Assembly (NCBI GenBank): GCA_044892505.1
Contig: CM097883.1
Location: forward strand, 282,782,001-282,846,000
Source of the DNA: Schmidtea nova
Lineage: Eukaryota
Length of the DNA: 64,000 bases
Reading direction: 5' to 3'
This document shows positions 34,201-45,271 of the stretch, piece after piece. The first letter of the stretch is position 1; each line of letters begins with the position of its first letter. The translations under genes and the position numbers were made by a program. The notes under the pieces are model-generated. The model was not told the DNA's origin, ran no database searches, and saw nothing but the letters and a program-made list of their open reading frames with translations.

Positions 34201-37200
34201 TTTCAGACTCAAGACAAGAAACAGAAATTTATATCGATGCTTCAATCATCAGTGCAAAAACGAAAATATCAAGTAGTTAAGTGTAGAGAATAATATGAAA
34301 GAAAAGTGTATGGAATCTCAGATTTAGTCCAAAAGAAACCAATCAGATTCCGAGAATTATTTTTGTCGAAAGAGAGACTTTGTATTTAATAATGATTATT
34401 TATAACTTGTTTAAATAATATTATAATTCGTGCAGAATTTAATTGTAAATTATTAAATATTATTTTAAAACTTTTTTAGTTCTTGTATAACACTGATAAT
34501 TTTTGACAAAATGCTAAAAGTTTATTGTAGAATCAATTTTTACATAAAATCATTTCTAGCAGTTTTAAATCGACTGAAAAAATAGATTTCGAGAATAAAT
34601 CATCTATAGAAATATAATGTCTGCATCTCGATAATAGGGAATCCAATACCGAAAGAAAAACCTTTATCGGCATTATAAAATAATTATACTGGGAAACCGA
34701 TATTAAAACCGTTTTTTAAAGAAATTATTTAGGTTTACATTTCATTAAAATTATTCATTTAAATTATTGGTTATTATTAAAAAATTTCTATTTATTTTAA
34801 ATACAACATAAATACTCAAAGAAAATAGTAATTCGTTAAAATAAAAAATAAATTAAACATGAAATAAACATAAAAATCACAATTAATTTAACAAATATTG
34901 GATTTCATCAAAAATTCGTTTTGCTTATTTTTTAATTATTTATTTCCTTTGAAGAATTCTCTAAAAAGTATACTGTCCAAAGTTTAATCATAAAATTTGC
35001 ATTGCAACTTATTCGAAATTACAATGAAACGGAAATATACTTTCGTACTTATTGTGCGAATAGTTAAAAGTAGAATATAATGTTGGCCAAGATATTTTCT
35101 CTGCACACCTTCATCTTAAAATAGGTTTATTTATTTTTTTAGATCTTTTCTGCGTTTTGGCGTTTTCTCAAGAACCATAAAAATTCTTTTCTTGAATAAT
35201 CTTTTATCTAATTTCGTCATTGAACATTCACACTTTTCTACCATTTCTCTCAAGTCACTCTCATCTTCACTGACCTCAAAATTTAAAATTTTAATTAATC
35301 AATCTTTGATTTACAATACCCAGCAGTATTTTGAGAATTTTTGATTTTGATATTCAAGAAAAATTGAAAGTTAGATTGATATATTTTTCGTGACTTTTAT
35401 TTGACTATCATCTTTAGGAGTTTTCTATATTTCCACCTTTTTTGTCGAACCCCTTTAAAGCTTATATGAACCCCTGTTCGGAAACACTGATATAGACAGC
35501 CAATTTAATAACTCCGACGCATAAAAAGTTTTATGTTGAAATTGTTATTTCTCTGTATTTTTATTTCTTACTTAATATAAATATTTTACTCATTCTTTCT
35601 CACCGAATTTTTTTTGTGGAAATATTTTTTATGACCGAAAGCCTAGATTGTTCCATTGATCGTTAGCAATTTTAGATGAGAGACAATTTGGAATAGTTTC
35701 TATTGCATAAAGCAACAGACATATAAATGGTATGGAGTAATTTTAAATTAACTGAAAGCATTGACTGAGTTTCTAATATCTATTTAACCTTTTCAATATG
35801 ATTAAATTTGAGCGTATTTTTAAGTTAATTTTAATTATATTTTACAGGTATTCCAGAAACGGGAATTAATGTGGAATCATCATCTCAATTATCGTTAACT
35901 CAAGCAAATATAATGCCATTTAAACCTCAGATTGAAGAATATGTGAAATTGGATATGATTCCCGAAGAAGCTGATTTTATTTATGGAATGGCAACCATTT
36001 CAAATTATGTTGCATATAGATCTACAAAAAAAGGATCTTGGTATATTACGGAATTATGTAAAAGAATCAAAAGCCAAGTTAAAACGTTGGTGAATTTAAA
36101 ATCATTTTAATTTTAGAATAATTTAAAATTTCACTTTAAATTGACGGTGTTGTGTTGGGGTTAAATATCATTTTTAATTTTCATTCTTCTTAGACTAACA
36201 TTTTTTCCGTTTAACTTTCATAAGTATGTTAAAATGCCATCGGTTTTTATTCGTTTTAGCCATGGTAAGGGAAATGCTTTGTACCGAAGTAATTGTTTGA
36301 TTATATAATTCATGCTAATAACACCTTAAAATACATAATTTAAAATACAAAACAGAAATATCTATAGATAACGTTTAGTAATGTATAGTAATAAAATCTA
36401 TGTATAAAAATCTAAAAAATAGTATTTCAATACCTGTTTTGTCTGTTTTAGAATTAGTTGTTAAAATAATAGTTTGTTTAAGAATTACAAACAGTAGTTA
36501 TAAAATTTCAATATTATGAATTTCATTATTGAATTTCTATTATTTAAAAAATTTATATTTTTTATAAAAACGATTAAAAGTCAAATTTCGGTTCTGAAGC
36601 CCCTTGAATAATGGAGGCCCTAGGCTGTAGCCCAGTTAGCCTTTAGGTAAATACGGCACTACACACACACATACTTGTTATTAGTAATTGTATTATAATA
36701 TTTTATGATTTTCTTTTTCATGAAATGTTATTGAGGAGAAAGTACGCTGGAGTTCTCACTAAATTTTACTATTGCATTATTAAATTCTAAAATTTTAATA
36801 AAATATTTTAAATTCCGAAATACTGGTTACAACTTTTTTTATTTTTTATAAATACTTTATTATGTACTAATACTTTGTAATTTCTGGAATTATTATATTA
36901 TTTTTAGACAACTTTTTTTATTTTTTATAAATACTTTATTATGTACTAATACTTTGTAATTTCTGGAATTATTATATTATTTTTAGACAACTTTTTTTAT
37001 TTTTTATAAATACTTTATTATGTACTAATACTTTGTAATTTCTGGAATTATTATATTATTTTTAGACAACTTTTTTTATTTTTTATAAATACTTTATTAT
37101 GTACTAATACTTTGTAATTTCTGGAATTATTATATTATTTTTAGACAACTTTTTTTATTTTTTATAAATACTTTATTATGTACTAATACTTTGTAATTTC

Positions 37201-37365
37201 TGGAATTATTATATTATTTTTAGACATGATATTATTGATATTCTAATCAATGTTATTTATGATGTTTCGAAGAAAAACTATAGAAATACTTGCCAGTTGC
37301 CTTCAGTCATATTTACATCACGAAAAAAGTGTTTTCTGACGAAACCAGTTATTTTAAAAACATAA
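28142..37365 (+). CDS. Caspase-8-like protease; exons 28142-28211, 28842-28954, 33200-33458, 35848-36085, 37224-37365 (822 nt, 273 aa)
   Basis: GT-AG introns join in phase (1,0,1,2) without stops. Motifs GVCLII..RKGSEKD, ILAHG, KPKLFFIQACQG, IPEEADFIYGMAT, GSWYITELC, DIIDIL..QLP..TSRKK. Exon 1 is less certain than exons 2-5. Confidence 0.85.
28842..28954 (+). CDS. Caspase exon 2 (p20 start)
   Basis: (G)VCLIIDIYKYQHYPRKGSEKDRKKIRSAFEDLHFTIQ; CTAG| and |GTAATT. Confidence 0.9.
29335..29550. repeat. Palindromic (fold-back) element, family Y
   Basis: Arms GGTACACGATATTTCGGCAG / GCAGAAATATCGTGTACC; same family at 56533-57030 and 60150-60285. Confidence 0.75.
29639..29679 (-). ncRNA. Minimal type I hammerhead ribozyme, degenerate
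   Basis: GCAA CTGATGA AAAGAAATAAGTTCTC GAAA TATATT GTGC; core intact, stems I and II each have one mismatch. Confidence 0.55.
30536..30576 (+). ncRNA. Minimal type I hammerhead ribozyme, G12A mutant
   Basis: GCAC CTGATGA AGAGAATTAAGTTCTC AAAA TATATT GTGC. Confidence 0.55.
30689..31023. mobile_element. MITE with about 75-bp TIRs
   Basis: TATGATGT(T/G)TCCCCGTCAGATACAGTACC.CATCGGTATTATGTAATAATTGGTC at both ends; a related right end lies at about 32165-32200. Confidence 0.8.
31162..31232 (-). tRNA. tRNA-Ala-like pseudogene or SINE head, copy 1
   Basis: A box TAGCTCAGTG, B box GGTTCAACTCC, TGC in the anticodon-like loop; poor anticodon stem. Confidence 0.55.
31327..31398 (-). tRNA. tRNA-Ala-like pseudogene or SINE head, copy 2
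   Basis: TTCGAATGTAGCTCAGTGATTGAG...TGC...GGTTCGATTCCCAAGTTGGAA; tandem with copy 1, about 165-bp period. Confidence 0.55.
33200..33458 (+). CDS. Caspase exon 3 (catalytic His and Cys)
   Basis: FYENLTKVEM...ILAHG...QACQG; TTAG| and |GTTAGT. Confidence 0.95.
33490..34250 (+). mobile_element. Decayed Gypsy integrase fragment in caspase intron 3
   Basis: ISIFGIPRNLHYDNCTQLK, HQLNGLIERV, WVESLQFTE, KLQPRYGDP. Confidence 0.65.
35848..36085 (+). CDS. Caspase exon 4 (linker plus p10)
   Basis: IPEEADFIYGMATISNYVAYRSTKKGSWYITELC; ACAG| and |GTTGGT. Confidence 0.9.
36829..37223 (+). repeat. Five exact tandem copies of a 79-bp unit containing the caspase 3' splice site
   Basis: Units start at 36829, 36908, 36987, 37066 and 37145; each has TACTAAT and ends TTATTTTTAG. 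Confidence 0.97.
37224..37365 (+). CDS. Caspase terminal exon (not in the supplied ORF track)
   Basis: HDIIDILINVIYDVSKKNYRNTCQLPSVIFTSRKKCFLTKPVILKT* matches the caspase-8 C-terminal pattern. Confidence 0.88.
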
Positions 37366-39935
37366 TTTAATATGAAATTTGATTTGGAGCTGTTATTAGT
37401 GTACACGCACCAATTCTTGAATTTTGATTGAATTTTTGAACGATAAATTTGAAATTATTTTTTTAATAATTAAATTAAGTATTGTAAAAATATTTTATTT
37501 ATTTCATTTAATTTTTATCATTTTCAATATTTATATCGTCACCAATATCTAATATTCTGTATTCCGAAATATGCGATTGACGTTTGAAGAATTGTATAGA
37601 TAGTTAATTAATTAAATAAAAAATATTCTCAAAGTGTATAGTTACTGTACGAAGAACCAGTGGCGGATTTAGATTTTGGTGCGTGGGGGGCGACCAAAAT
37701 TTTCAGGGGGCTCCACAAATTATGAAGATTGTACTACTCATTTTCCCGAGTATTGAGTGAATACTAATATTATTATAAAGCATTAGATTCAGTAAATTTA
37801 TTGATGTAACAAACATACCAGTTTATTTATTATTTAAATTGCTTCCTGCGTGATTTCATTGAAGCAAAACGATTTATAGTCGATTCAAAGTCAATGTTCT
37901 CAGCCAGTTCGCGTTCTATTGAAATTAATGCTAATCCAGACAGACGTTCGTTTGTCATTGTTGATCGCAAATAATTTTTGATAATTTTCAGTCTACTGAA
38001 ACTTCTTTCAGCAGTAGCAGATGTAACAGGAAGAGTCAAGTATATTTTATAGAGAATTGCCAAATTGGGAAGTCCCGGCGCCATCTGTTTTTCAACCAAG
38101 AAAGGCAGCACCTCTTTAAGTTGTATATCACAAGATAGTAATGGGCGTATTGATGCATACACGTATTTGAAAGTATCATATTCTAGGATTGCTTCTTCAA
38201 TATTAATATCGTTTTTGTAAATGTCGCATAAATTTTGAAAAGATTCTTTATTTTCTTCTGATATTTGTGATGGATCAAGACAGGAGAATAAAGCAACAGT
38301 GTTATGAAAATCATTAAAACGTTCATCTAGTTGTGTTACAAGTGTATCCAAGACAGTGAAATACGTTTCACATTTGAAACGTGTAGTTGGATCATCAACA
38401 CTTTCATCTCTGTTAAGTTCGCCTGCCATGCGTTTCTTTTTTGCAACTCGCTTTTCTTTAAATTCTGTTTCAACATCTGGTGAAGAACAATTTTTGGTAA
38501 TAAATGATTTTACAGCAACATTTAGACTTTCAAAAGCTTTATCACTTCTCATATCAGCAAACTTATTTCTGGCAACATAAATCAATTGTTTTGCAAACGC
38601 AATATCTATGTCCTTTCGTTGCAAATAGTTTGATAACACAAAGATATTATCTAACAGCTTTTGTAGAAATAGCATCAGAAAAACAAAAGAATATTTTGTT
38701 ATCAAAATAGATAGTCCCATAGCTTCTGCTCTGACACTTCCTTTGTGTTCTTTTGATTCCCCAAAATTTATATCTTCTAGAGTAGATATAATAGCAGAGA
38801 ATGATCCAACAACTGCATCAACTGCATGCTTTCGACTTGTTCATCTTGTATCAGAAAGTCGTTTTAGAGTATCTACTGTCGATCCATATCGAGACTTCTG
38901 ATGTTCTTCGAGAATATGTAGTCGTGGTAAACTTGATGTAAGGAAAGTATACAACTTTTCTGTTGTACCAAAAAACAACTGAACATCACTGTTAAGAGAC
39001 ATTGCTTCAATAGTCACCAAATTCAATGCATGAGAACAACAGTGAACAAAGATGGCATTTGGTGAAAGTGTCTTTATCTTAGTTTGAAGACCATTTTTAA
39101 TCCCAGACATCACAGAGGCACCATCATATGCCTGTCCTCTACAAAGTGTAATGTCAATGTTTCGCTCTTGTAACTCCGTTAATATTATATCAGAAAATGC
39201 TGCAGCATTACTGTTTTCCAACTTGTAGAAGCCTATAAATCGCTCAACAACTTGTCCTGATTTTAACACTAATCTTAAAGAAACTGACATCTGATCAACT
39301 CTGGATATATCAATTGTTGAATCAACAATTAGAGAAAAGAATTGTGCAGACCTAACTTCATTATCAATATTTGCGGATAATTCAGAGGCAAGTGATTGAA
39401 TTAGGTCATTTTGTACATCATGACATAAATAAAGTTCATTTTTCTTTTCAAACTTTAGATGATTGTCCAAAGTGGAATCATATTTAGCCAATAAAAATAG
39501 CAATTCTCGAAAATTTCCAATATTACTACTACTGTCAGAGCCAGAATGTTCTCTGTGTCCTCTGAATGGCAAACCTTGTTTTGCTAAAAACAACGTTGCA
39601 TCTACCATGCGTTTCAAAACTTCTCTATTTTTTCCACTTGATAACGCTCCTGACTGATCAAACCAGATATCACAGTTTTATCATTTGAAATGCGATATTT
39701 AGCCAGCAAATATTGGCATATTGCACTTTGATGTTGATTGGAAGCTTCATGTTTAACGATTTTTTCCATGCCTTTTTTCCAGTTATAAACTCCAAAATTT
39801 GGATCGGACCATTCCTTGCTAAAATTTTCAGTTTTACAATCAGCGAATAACCATCAAGCTTGGCAATGCATTTTTTGATTTGTTGGTGAATAGACAAGCT
39901 AATTTCTTTCCTCCTTCATACTACCTTTTCCAAAC

Positions 39936-40167
39936 GGGTATTATTATTTCGTCACTTAAATTACAAACATGGTCACTAATTTTTTTTAAATTTGTCTCTT
40001 TAATTACATAAATGTGCTCGTCATTTAATTAAATTGTCTATTAAATTTATTGAATGATCACTAGGTCTAAATGGTCTCTTTAATTAAAAAAGTTGTCTCT
40101 TAATTTGTTTATTTAGTCACTTATTTTAATTTAATGGTCTAATTTTGTGATTAACGATCACTTATTA

Positions 40168-40245
<78 letters not shown>

Positions 40246-40758
40246 TATCATTATATTNNNNNNNNNNNNNNNNNNNNNNNNNNNNNNNNNNNNNNNNNNN
40301 NNNNNNNNNNNNNNNNNNNNNNNNNNNNNNNNNNNNNNNNNNNNNNNNNNNNNNNNNNNNNNNNNNNNNNNNNNNNNNNNNNNNNNNNNNNNNNNNNNNN
40401 NNNNNNNNNNNNNNNNNNNNNNNNNNNNNNNNNNNNNNNNNNNNNNNNNNTATTTAGTATTATTTAGTGGTTATGGTTTGTCATTTTTCTTATTAAATTT
40501 TTTTTTACATAAAAATTCAATTAAATTTCAAATAAACATTTTGAACAGCTTACATTTTTTTTATTTAAGTGACTTAAAGTAATTTAAGTGACCATATTTG
40601 GTAAATTTAAGTGCTCACTTATATTTAATTTTGAGTGATCAAGTTAGTAATTTAAGTGACCAAATCTGTAATTGAAGTGATCGCTTATGATTTATTAAAG
40701 TGATCAAAAATATTAAGTGATCATTTATGTAATTTAAGTGACCGGATAATCACCACCC
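39936..40758. mobile_element. MULE-like insert interrupting the hAT transposase (spans an N gap)
   Basis: Inverted arrays of GGTCACTTAA / TTAAGTGACC motifs; flanking 10-bp direct repeat TTTTCCAAA(C/A); the transposase frame rejoins when it is removed. Confidence 0.6.
40258..40450. other. Assembly gap (others at 46600-46872 and 56395-56532)
   Basis: Runs of N. Confidence 1.
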
Positions 40759-43291
40759 TTTTCCAAAACATTTTGTGTACCAAGAAATTTGAAACTTGCG
40801 CCCCAATTCATCTGTCGGAAATTGATATAGTTCATTGAGTCCAGGTTGAAATGGTCCGATTTCAAACAATTTTCGTATCAGTTTCGAGCTTATGCTCGTA
40901 TTAATGTAGAGTCCTGGATCTGTAGGAAAGTCGGATTGAGGAAGAAGTGGTTCTTGTAAAATATCTGAAACAAGTTGTTTTTCCACTGTATCAAATTCTG
41001 AACCACCCTGATTATGTTTCAAGCCCTGAGCAGGTAATGTTACCGTCTCAGTATTCTCTGCACATGAATGTATAGCTGGGTGTTGATCATCAACTACAGA
41101 TAGTACTTGCTCATCTTCAACAAGAACTTCAGATGATGTTTCTGTCTCAGCAGGCTCAGTACAGGAACTCGAATGCGTAGATGGGTGTTGATCATCAAAT
41201 ACATGCACATTTTTAGCAGAAACTTCAGCTGATTGAACTACTGGCAGTTTAGACTGTTTAGTAATAAATGATGTTAACTTAATACATTTGCTAGCATCTG
41301 CCTTGAGACTGGCTTCCTTTGCCAATTTACGCCTAGATGATCCACTTAATTTGGTAACTGATTTTCTTTTATTAGTGTCACCAGTTGACTCAGCCATGGC
41401 TCTAATTTAAATTTTATTTTAATTCAATATTGAATATTATTTTAATATTTCAATACTAACGCAATAATTTGTTTGTCATAAAAGTCCAAATTGACAATAA
41501 TTTTTATGGTTAGATTTATGTACAAACACTATACAAGCTTAAAAAAGTCAAACTGTCGCTCTTCACAGGAGCTATGTAATATTATTAATATGATGCAGCA
41601 TAACAGCTGGAGTTGCTTAAATCCAGTTGAACTTTGTACACAGACAAAACTGTAATAAGAGACAGTGGCAGTCTCAGCACTGCTGAGTAAGCTGTAATCT
41701 GCACTACTGAAGAATATGCCTGCTGCTGTGCTGCATCAACTATGTTTAACAACATAGCTGAGTAATAGGTACTATCAATAATAATAATAATAATAATAAT
41801 ATAAACGGTGACTCTGAGCAGCTGTATGCTGCAGTGATAGTAGAATACATTTCAATCCATTTAGCTCTTCCAAATCAAAGATATATTAAATTGTCAGTGT
41901 CAGTGATCGGATTAATCTTAATGCTTGTACACATTCATAAAAATTATCTTTGGGGGGCGCCAATTAGGATTCAACAGGGGCGTGGGGGGGCGACCCACCC
42001 CCTTACGCCGCTGTTGAATCCGCCACTGCGAAGAACTTATAATAATAACAAATTGTTATTTTTTTCATGGCTCAGAGTTAACTTTATCAGTTAGAATAGT
42101 TTTAAAACATTTAGCTTATGGAAGTCACGACTGTATCAGATTTATTACACGGCTTCATCCAGGATTTGGTTTCTTTTAAAAATTAATATAATATTTAATT
42201 TTCACTGAAGATGACTGCAAAGATTTAATCCTTTAAAGAAAGGAATCCGAAATAAATTTTTGTTTTCATAAAATATTTTTTTTCATTCGTAGGTTATTTC
42301 AACACATTCTACAACGATTTTGTTTGGCGAGTTATTTGTTCCAGACATAGATTTCTCGGATGTCATTTTAAACATAACTGTCTTTACACCTATGGATCAT
42401 ATGATTTACTAATATGCCTACTTGTAAGATATCAAATGTTTTTATAACTTGATAAAATAAATGTTGATATTATTTGATGGAAGGTGTTTTTAAACAGCGC
42501 ATCTCTTACTTCACAAAATACATGCGTTAAGACAACTGTATGCGAGCTAGTGACGCGTTTCCGTCTAGTCATTTAAATTGTTACAGGAAATCAACGTACT
42601 TTAAGCGTTTATCATTTTATTACACTCTAAAATATGAAAACGGGAGTCACTTAATAAATTTAAACCTGGATATTTCTATCCGATATTATTTGCCTGGATA
42701 TTTTGGTTGATTATCTTAGGACGCCACACAATACGTTCTAGTCTGCTGACAGAGTAAGGTATCACTTAACACAATGGATTGTCAACCCATCACCTGTATG
42801 ATTGTGTTGTTGAATTTTTAAGAAAACTTTAATATCTGCTTGTATGAATCTTGATGCTCTAGGGTTAAAATACACATAAAATGACTACTGTCCATTTACA
42901 CGTAAATACCCTATCTATTTATGGATAATCATGGCCTAAATGTTGAGCCTACGTGTGCGCAATAATTAATTTATTTCGCGTCTGTGTGAGCAGTTGTTTC
43001 AGTTTAAAGGAGATGTATGCCATCTTCTCGCGTCTGTGTGCGCAGCATTGATTTTTATGGCTTGCTGTTCTTGCGTCTGTGTGCGCGTTTCGTCGAATTC
43101 TTTTAGTTGTTTAATAAAGGAATTTCTGAATTGTTAGATTTATTGATTGTTTTATCGAATTAATTCGATTAATTGTCTTGTGTTCTTCATGGAGATTTTC
43201 GAATTTTTGCTAAGTGGAAATTTATTTTGCAAATAAACATTTTGAACAATTGAAGACTCCAATTTGGAGTTAGTTTTTATTTTTCACTCTT

Positions 43292-43520
43292 ATGGACAAA
43301 AGATTAACCATCCAAAATATGAATGCCATAGCTCATGTTGATCATAGAAAGTCTAACTCAACAAATTCGCTGGTGAGTGAAGATTGTGTTACAACAACTG
43401 TCAAAGCCAATGAGGCTAGAATTACAGATACAATAAAAGATGAACAGGAAAGATGTATAATCGTAAAATCTACAACTATTTCCATGTACAATGAAATGAT
43501 TGAAGACAATTTAGCTTCAG
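43292..43520 (+). pseudogene. EEF2: Elongation factor 2 N-terminal fragment, degraded
   Basis: MDKRLTIQNMNAIAHVDHRKSNSTNSL...TDTIKDEQERCIIVKSTTISM versus eEF2 [21 protein letters not shown]...DEQERCITIKSTAIS; P-loop G changed to R. Confidence 0.85.
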
Positions 43521-43612
43521 AATTGATGACTTCAGAATTTATCTTATTACATTTCTATAATGTCTGGAACGTCGAAGGTTTTCCTAAATAACCGAAAGCT
43601 GGTGCGGCTCGG

Positions 43613-43942
43613 TTGTGTACTGCTCTTCGAGAATCTCGAAAGAATTGTGAATCAATAACGCTGTTTTTTGGTGATTCTTTAAGTTTGTCCATGATTAGTA
43701 CAATAATTCAAGGAGATCATGTGCCAGATAGTTTGAATGAAATCGATATCAATGTGGCCGTGTATGGCAATCGTGATTTTGCTTTCGGTGTTGTCAAGTT
43801 AATGCAATGTGTAGATAAAATAAATTTCCAATGGTTAAATAGTGTTATCTTTGACAGTATGACAGAGGAAATGTTCGCTTTGTTAAACCATGGTAGCAGA
43901 GCGTGGTTCCCTTTGGGGGGCACGCACAAATTCTCAGAATGA
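43613..43942 (+). other. Unassigned 109-aa ORF
   Basis: Open frame of normal composition; no family recognised. Confidence 0.2.
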
Positions 43943-44327
43943 TAGCTTAGGTGAGGGGGATTCCAAGATATATCCAGTTTCACCACAATGAAGATTATAT
44001 TAAATATATAATTTCTCCTTCTCGTTTTAATTTAATATATACAAAAAATACCAGGAGAATCCACGATGGATAAGTCAAAGAATCAGCTCCAAAAATGATG
44101 ATAAACATACAAATGGATGAACAGGCGTCTGGACTTTGAAGATGGCGTAAAAGTGAACTTTATTTTGATAGTTTATATGTATAGGTTATATGTAAGGTTA
44201 TACGTTCCTCCTTCTCTTCTTCCCTTTGCGACATTTTGCGACAGGCTTTAGCGTAATAAGGGACCGGAAAAGGTGCTGCTATGAGCCCCAGCATTCTTTT
44301 TAATTCGTAAATGAACTGACAGAGGAA

Positions 44328-44782
44328 AAGCAGATTTTTGTAAAAACTTTTACTGGAAAAACCATTAATTTAGAAGTTGAGTGCAGCGATAAAATTGAAA
44401 ATGTGAAAGCGAAAATACAAGATAAAGACGGCATTCCACCAGATCAACAAAGATTGATCTTTGCCGGTAAACAGTTAGAAGATGGAAGGACTTTATCAAA
44501 TTACAACATTCAAAAAGAATCTACACTAAATTTGGTTTTGTGTTATCAAGGTGGCATGCAAATATTTGTAAAAGCATTAACAGGGAAAACTATTACCCTG
44601 GAATCTGAATTAAGCGACACAATAGAAAACGTAAAGGGAAAAATCTAAGACAAAGTAGGAATTCCACTAGTGCAGCAAAGATTAATTTATGCTGGCAGAC
44701 AATTAAAGGTCGCCGAAAATTATCGGACTATAAGGTTGTTAATGGGTCGACCATTCATTTGGTCCTGCGTTTTAGAGGAGGT
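44328..44782 (+). pseudogene. Tandem di-ubiquitin, decayed
   Basis: Unit 1 at 44328-44555 (start ATG changed to AAG, ends CYQGG). Unit 2 at 44556-44782 (TAA at Q31, 1-nt deletion, ends HLVLRFRGG). Confidence 0.92.
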
Positions 44783-45271
44783 GGTATTGAAGATGATGAT
44801 AACTACAGAAATTTATGGACTCGTCGGTGTTCTCGAAAATGGAAAATAACTCGAGCGCGTAATTTATTGTTGGCAGAAATGGTCGGGGATATTAAGGATA
44901 CACTTGTAGCCTATGAAAAAGAGTTTGACGATACAATGGACGAATGGCTAAGACTTGTCGAGTTATGTGACGAATTAAATAAAATGGAGGAGTTTGTATT
45001 GGTTGAAAAAGATATTTGTGAGCTCGCAGCGAAGAAGGAAGAGGTAGATAAATTAATGCAAAAATAAACAGAACAAAGTATTGTGAGCAAGGGATCAAAT
45101 ACATTGGAATGTGAATCACCAAAGGAAAGGAAGAGTTTAAATCGGTTGCAGAAAATAAAAATTCCAATTTTCGATGGGAAAGTGGTAGAGTCTAAAACGT
45201 GGTTAGGTATTCAATCCTCAGATGATAAAGGATTTAACGGGGAAATAGAAAAAACTTTCGGTGCTAGATAA
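44783..45271 (+). mobile_element. BEL/Pao Gag-like N-terminal fragment in frame with ubiquitin unit 2
   Basis: RRCSRKWKITRARNLL..., helical region, then RLQKIKIPIFDGKVVESKTW resembling the BEL Gag KLP.L.IP.F.G....W motif; one stop at 45065. Confidence 0.65.

Follow-up and report, generated by a model that had tools for sequence, protein, structure and literature searches.

The ubiquitin-Gag fusion in the 64,000-nucleotide window (the whole stretch of DNA that was analysed) belongs to a dead, truncated copy of a BEL/Pao retrotransposon, from a lineage in which a single reading frame runs from the long terminal repeat (LTR) across the primer-binding site and through pieces of host genes into ubiquitin and then Gag-Pol. 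The layout and its open frames are present in sister copies, many of the upstream pieces come from host genes, one of them in spliced form, the ubiquitin is under constraint, and one host piece drifts. We consider it likely that the Gly-Gly (GG) at the end of the ubiquitin is a deubiquitinase cut site from which Gag-Pol is released.

The window copy lies on the forward strand of an AT-rich, 1.25-Gb animal genome, putatively planarian, and begins with a decayed 5' LTR (42922-43890, TG...CA), whose start matches the 5' end of the L046 LTR (79.5% over 83 bp) as well as L142, and whose CA abuts the primer-binding site. Within the LTR is a piece of eEF2 (43286-43516; residues 11-87 of eEF2 in the PDB, E = 2e-21; Pfam GTP_EFTU) that is common to L136, L138, and L143 and shares its frame with the primer-site peptide GSRAWF. 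Another host-like piece, in frame with the eEF2 one (43592-43879, in an open frame at 43592-43942 and 79% identical to L142), has no match in Pfam or the PDB. The primer-binding site (43891-43908), which encodes GSRAWF in the element frame, is complementary to the 3' end of tRNA-Met(CAT) as encoded in this genome, and is followed by a leader (43909-44327) that is 79-82% identical to sister copies; the leader is broken in the window, and its equivalent is open and coding in L013/L046, L044, and L050. Ubiquitin unit 1 (44328-44555), located by tblastn, has no Met, ends in CYQGG, and shares 91% nucleotide identity with unit 1 of the host tri-ubiquitin gene L145, while unit 2 (44556-44782) is a chimera of a host-like 5' part and an old element 3' part, is interrupted by a stop and a frameshift, and ends in RFRGG. 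Together, the pair matches the Pfam ubiquitin family with E = 9e-34. In the translation of 44304-45271, the unit 2 tail LVLRFRGG continues into GIEDDDNY...RLQKIKIPIFDG with no stop at the junction. The N-terminal part of a BEL/Pao Gag (44783-45202) was recognized by tblastn with P0001, a protein from the sister copy L033; it contains one stop and ends where DUF1759 starts, and it was aligned with Gags that lack ubiquitin. The Pfam scan did not detect DUF1759 in the window because the element breaks off at about 45202, and 45203-45271 has no match to any sister copy.

The preliminary description of this copy as dead is borne out by four stops (43589-91, 43940-42, 44646-48, and 45065-67), a frameshift within unit 2 at about 44705, a net change of frame between the primer site and unit 1, and a lack of pol and a 3' LTR within the 64,000-nt window. 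It overlooked the LTR and primer site that precede the ubiquitin, and also that the frame does not begin at ubiquitin: the frame enters from the LTR by way of the primer site and contains host pieces, and only a minority of parsed ubiquitin units start with Met (see below). Elsewhere in the window, a hAT-type transposase (DUF4371 and dimerisation domain) is split over several ORFs on the minus strand at 37830-41406, and a 79-bp tandem repeat with five perfect copies occupies 36829-37226.

A 15-base primer motif has 2,677 matches in the genome, against none for a control. In 1,034 cases the match is in a tRNA-gene context, and ARAGORN identifies the motif-bearing gene as tRNA-Met(CAT), presumably an initiator tRNA to judge from its sequence. 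From G000:C1:510090092 onward (L130), tRNA-Met(CAT) genes are repeated in tandem every 458 bp. We sampled the first 66 primer sites in genome order, which all fall within the first 43 Mb of one contig and are partly tandem and related, so that the counts overstate independence. Ubiquitin followed by Gag was found at 61 of these sites, which upholds the proposal of an in-frame ubiquitin-Gag fusion across a lineage. The GSRAWF frame is open for at least 60 codons upstream into the LTR at 58 of 66 sites (median 199), against 0/66 and 2/66 for the other two frames. Among the 59 elements with a long ubiquitin match, the frame from the primer site into Gag is open in 34 and broken in 25, and in 32 it is continuous from an LTR Met through ubiquitin to Gag. 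The upstream (leader) peptides form 44 clusters, with pieces common across clusters. An AATAAA lies 30-65 nt before the primer site in 44/66, and no bin further away than 60 bases contains more than 4; the last 600 nt before the 66 sites contain a median of 18 ATGs. Contigs from three runs of unrecorded kind cover flanking DNA as well and speak neither for nor against expression. At least 24 of the 66 LTR starts (L063-L128) directly follow an (AAT)n microsatellite array, a repeat that makes up 0.7% of the window, and further young copies, of several families (L031, L032, L034, L036, L038-L040, L042, and L048) also sit in such arrays; target preference or survival bias are possible reasons for this association. 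Some elements form head-to-tail runs with a spacing of 4.6-7.4 kb, apparently sharing LTRs (L069/L070, L081/L082, L100/L101, L118-L121, and L052/L054/L055).

The ubiquitin-Gag junction is not unique to the window. A DNA search with the junction gave 678 candidates; 40 were scored and all 40 retain it, one being the window itself and the others 87-91% identical, and therefore the junction did not arise by chance. A protein search gave 2,940 candidates, and many of the 112 that were scored are in frames of >1,000 residues. Twenty stretches, picked for long frames or two ubiquitin units, were fetched. In sister copies, the Gag start is followed by DUF1759, zinc knuckles, protease, reverse transcriptase (RT), Peptidase_A17, and integrase. 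The preliminary identification of a di-ubiquitin in frame with a BEL/Pao Gag thus stands, with two units by both Pfam and tblastn and sister copies that run on from DUF1759 to integrase; its expectation of DUF1759 downstream holds in these copies and not in the window copy itself. P0001 carries the BEL/Pao domain set in gypsy-like order, of which the window copy retains the Gag start only. L033, the source of P0001, has identical 878-bp LTRs, a 5-bp target duplication (AGGAT), a purine tract, and one frame of 2,290 residues that reads through the LTR start, a HECT piece, the primer site, an HSP70 piece, a ubiquitin tail, ubiquitin, DUF1759, RT, Peptidase_A17, and integrase. The start of this frame is, as we take it by eye, calmodulin-like. 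The target-site duplication of L046 is ATGGC. There are copies with LTR pairs that are 99-100% identical and single frames of 2,100-2,350 residues, and several other fetched copies, with LTRs that are 99.3-99.9% identical, are without RT and integrase. In L031 and related young copies of family A, which lack RT and integrase, an open frame of 1,650-1,740 residues connects the two LTRs, and the protease is followed by acidic filler; such copies are likely non-autonomous derivatives that provide Gag. A second family, found with the outside protein P0124, has frames of 1,805-2,352 residues in 26 scored matches and a diverged ubiquitin unit that ends in LKGG.

Many of the pieces upstream of the primer site derive from host coding sequence. 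Stop-free ORFs of at least 55 residues were collected from the 750 bases that precede the primer site in 50 representative loci. Matches to host Pfam families came from 24 of the 51 ORFs in frame, and of the 91 off frame 4 had any match. The in-frame matches cover 13 families (HECT, enolase, RING, FHA, TPR, TCP-1, FKBP, ThiF, Dcc1, proteasome, SAM decarboxylase, ANAPC2, and ABC membrane). Two of the four off-frame matches are weak HALZ hits on antisense repeats, and the two genuine ones (L097 and L106) are read as frameshifted copies: in L097, the TCP-1 piece changes frame 14 codons ahead of the primer site, and an in-frame ORF in L084 matches the L106 piece at 71% identity. A single host locus matches the Dcc1 piece of L092 over two stretches (99% and 97% identical) that are 6.6 kb apart, with GT-AG at the cut, the 6.6-kb intron missing, and a clean join in the LTR. 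This piece, the only capture traced to its exons, is of spliced origin. Other LTRs match the Dcc1-piece query over its initial 130 and final 53 bases and differ in the middle, and therefore the middle is exchangeable. As for microsimilarity at the switch points, the Dcc1 junctions could be located in the LTR, and the pattern of polyubiquitin capture fits a homologous template switch. The idea that captures always reach the 5' end of the mRNA was rejected, as the Dcc1 piece begins about ten codons past the host Met. When the calmodulin piece was compared with the genome, all 40 matches listed were 100% identical and are read as LTR copies. Host pieces are partial and overwritten and differ among near-identical elements, and some are common to many young copies. 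L051 and L056 carry an in-frame LTR piece of 290+ residues that we take to resemble VPS35. The LTRs of L074, L077, and L085 contain FKBP and TPR pieces, which we presume could derive from a piRNA factor of the FKBP6/Shutdown type.

Selection on the fusion, raised in the preliminary description, is evident in family A. In 20 stop-free copies, partly picked for long frames, and with variants counted when present in at least two copies, pN/pS is 0.12 for ubiquitin, 0.16 for Gag, and 1.06 for the HSP70 piece, the one host piece measured. The HSP70 piece differs from ubiquitin (Fisher p = 6e-4) and ubiquitin does not differ from Gag (p = 0.76); the ubiquitin of family A is constrained like Gag and the HSP70 piece drifts. 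Between families, the dN/dS of ubiquitin is 0.08-0.57 where dS is unsaturated. Automated parsing gave 53 units, of which 51 end in GG, and correction by hand (dropping L123, which is unit 1 of a di-ubiquitin, and adding three rows with GG) gave 53 of 55 units with GG directly before Gag, with both exceptions having stops nearby. In the upstream ubiquitin tail, GG is present in 35/47 and LRGG in 21/47, after five rows with no parsable tail were dropped. The residue after GG is N, M, S, G, or V, and never Pro. Arg74 is often replaced, with LCGG in 25/53 units, LNGG and LKGG in others, and L, F, or Y in the outside proteins, a change that may slow cleavage. The first residue of the unit is Met1 in 16/53 and Ile in 30/53; in family A the units begin with Met1, and in family D a Met follows GG. 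The earlier reading of the ubiquitin as a cleavage signal remains the best explanation and a probable one, with the retained GG in its favor, although cleavage itself is a step that we infer.

The di-ubiquitin of the window copy is incidental to the lineage and likely reflects a later capture from a host polyubiquitin gene. Three such genes were found, including L145. In the window subfamily, unit 1 matches its counterpart in L145 at 88-91% identity, and unit 2 of the sister copies is 90-92% identical to unit 2 of L145 over codons 2-33 and 64% identical over codons 34-76. Because unit 1 and codons 2-33 are host-like and codons 34-76 are old, a piece of polyubiquitin mRNA has likely recombined into an older resident unit. 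The suggestion that the divergence of unit 2 reflects long residence therefore holds for its 3' half, at 64% nucleotide identity to the nearest host unit, and not for its host-like 5' part. The young family A has this host-like 5' part as well, joined to a 3' part that matches a family C copy at 94% identity; the ubiquitin unit has therefore been swapped among families. An origin of unit 2 from NEDD8 found no support: the best 60 of 320 PDB matches include no entry named NEDD8 and consist of ubiquitin or engineered variants. Ub-Ub had been proposed as a trait of the family, and the sample contradicts this: two full units are present in 1 of 61 elements, and most have one unit, often behind a tail of 12-14 residues. 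Five near-identical copies of the window subfamily (L015-L019, G000:C1:590835170-590968762) lie ~33 kb apart in a tandem segmental repeat.

Some Gag relatives outside this genome also carry the fusion. They comprise 160 proteins, 10 from one search and the best 150 of 12,079 from another, a homologue search with the ubiquitin unit in the query having been swamped by polyubiquitins. Ubiquitin precedes Gag in seven of the 160 (P0123, P0125, P0146, P0169, P0201, P0230, and P0282), and P0124 and P0176 begin with a tail ending in LKGG. The GG before the Gag helix is kept in all nine, though their ubiquitin is far diverged. P0123 and P0125 carry GSRAWF and P0169 carries GSRAG, together with TRAF or HSP90 pieces (Pfam), and P0123 has what we take to be a DnaJ-like piece. 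The closest of the outside relatives share 33-38% Gag identity with the query. In the alignment, Gags without ubiquitin begin a few residues before the GG position, and the label 'no ubiquitin' refers to predicted proteins that are possibly clipped N-terminally (P0124 and P0188). In a tree from a quick search (91 of 94 rows, with L069, L085, and P0131 dropped), 14 ubiquitin-bearing rows fall outside a 69-row group without ubiquitin (SH-aLRT 99); the ubiquitin-bearing rows cluster in this tree, yet need 3 changes.

Linear ubiquitin fusions are cleaved after GG by host deubiquitinases. In the mechanism that we favor, the poly(A) signal near the end of the LTR would create a long R region that holds the host pieces, the 5' end of the RNA would be hundreds of bases long with many AUGs, and translation would start at an AUG in the LTR. 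Reverse transcriptase would jump onto a host mRNA packaged alongside the element's RNA and then return, replacing parts of R and of the leader, and only products that keep the frame would still make Gag-Pol and spread. Cleavage after GG would give Gag a fixed N-terminus whatever lies upstream, making the leader translated but disposable filler, and the di-ubiquitin of the window may be one such capture, from polyubiquitin mRNA into a resident unit. Double template switching is a published model of host-sequence capture (PMC5131818), and pestivirus ubiquitin is described as a processing signal for NS3 (PMC8310069).

Constraint over the whole ubiquitin fold would also fit a binding domain that is never cleaved. 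Ubiquitin could stay on Gag as a binding or folding domain that recruits ESCRT or ubiquitin receptors, or be removed by the element's own protease, and the low pN/pS across the entire unit, the wide variation of Arg74, and the precedent of engineered ubiquitin-Gag fusions in place of late domains speak for this. We find it unlikely, however, as GG is kept at the Gag junction and in the nine distant proteins while the rest diverges, and without cleavage Gag would carry 300-640 residues of variable filler from host genes. The captured pieces might themselves be useful, with released leader-ubiquitin acting as a decoy or host-like R blunting silencing, which is compatible with cleavage. The pieces do include E1 (ThiF), HECT, proteasome, APC2, FKBP, chaperonin, HSP70, and HSP90, in frame and common to many young copies, but the neutral-looking pN/pS of the HSP70 piece and the partial, overwritten, and variable state of the pieces among near-identical elements make a useful role quite improbable. 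A broader picture, of an old BEL/Pao lineage with an obligatory host-deubiquitination step and an LTR that is an ever-rewritten, translated library of host mRNA, with some pieces countering silencing or protein-quality pathways once released, is conceivable, and we offer it tentatively.

If translation instead started at ubiquitin or Gag, the upstream open frame would be a by-product of capturing coding sequence, which is stop-free by origin, and Met1 in family A and the Met after GG in family D would provide start sites. This is very unlikely: more than half of the units start with Ile, the upstream frame is also open across the primer site and across linkers that are not host-derived, and capture blind to frame predicts mostly off-frame pieces, yet 24 are in frame against two real ones off frame. 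As for linear di-ubiquitin (Ub-Ub-Gag) as a functional signal, at least 30 loci form a subfamily with two units, but its frequency in the sample largely refutes it, unit 1 is a later capture that decays in several copies, and the copies of this subfamily that were examined are broken and of greater age (LTR pairs 89-96% identical), so that we give it practically no credence.

Domains and LTR features place the elements in BEL/Pao. BEL/Pao elements (PMC3118150) share with them TG...CA LTRs, a 5-bp target duplication, a single gag-pol frame, DUF1759, the order protease-RT-Peptidase_A17-integrase, and a length of 5-9 kb; in contrast, the frame here begins within the LTR and continues over the primer site, the LTR contains host pieces, and ubiquitin precedes Gag. 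The word ubiquitin is absent from the main text of that paper, which reports the Flow superfamily of BEL/Pao, to which these elements possibly belong, from Hydra, Nematostella, and a planarian (PMC3118150). Cytopathic pestiviruses (BVDV Osloss, CP1, and CP Rit) resemble the lineage in that ubiquitin taken from the host, preceded by further host sequence, lies in frame ahead of a viral protein, and a ubiquitin fold ending in GG, in frame and followed by a residue other than Pro, was found here in 53 of 55 units. In the pestiviruses, host hydrolases make the authentic N-terminus, whereas in the retrotransposon lineage we infer the cleavage, and the fusions are sporadic RNA virus recombinants, whereas here the fusion is a fixed, old trait (PMC8310069). 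LTR-mediated retroposition likewise places partial, intron-less, and sometimes multi-gene pieces in LTR elements, often in frame, with one BEL case in mosquito; there the piece replaces an internal ORF and leaves the element non-autonomous, whereas here pieces lie in both LTRs and the leader and the gag-pol frame is complete (PMC5131818). The giant Ty3/gypsy elements of planarians, Burro/GYPSM1, also have host-derived domains, including a ubiquitin/SUMO-like one, in an LTR polyprotein, but belong to another superfamily and carry stable domains after an N-terminal Gag rather than an LTR mosaic that turns over and a ubiquitin where Gag begins (PMC6431247). A literature search found no description of ubiquitin-Gag BEL elements, with most subscription papers and Repbase entries outside its coverage.

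If cleavage at GG holds, this lineage has fixed a trick that pestiviruses find by accident, its Gag depends on host deubiquitinases, and its tolerance of constant host mRNA capture without loss of gag-pol is explained. The genome would then hold, by extrapolation, roughly 1,500 natural records of which mRNAs were co-packaged and where template switches landed. In-frame host pieces seeded through the genome in this way can confuse annotation or feed small-RNA pathways.
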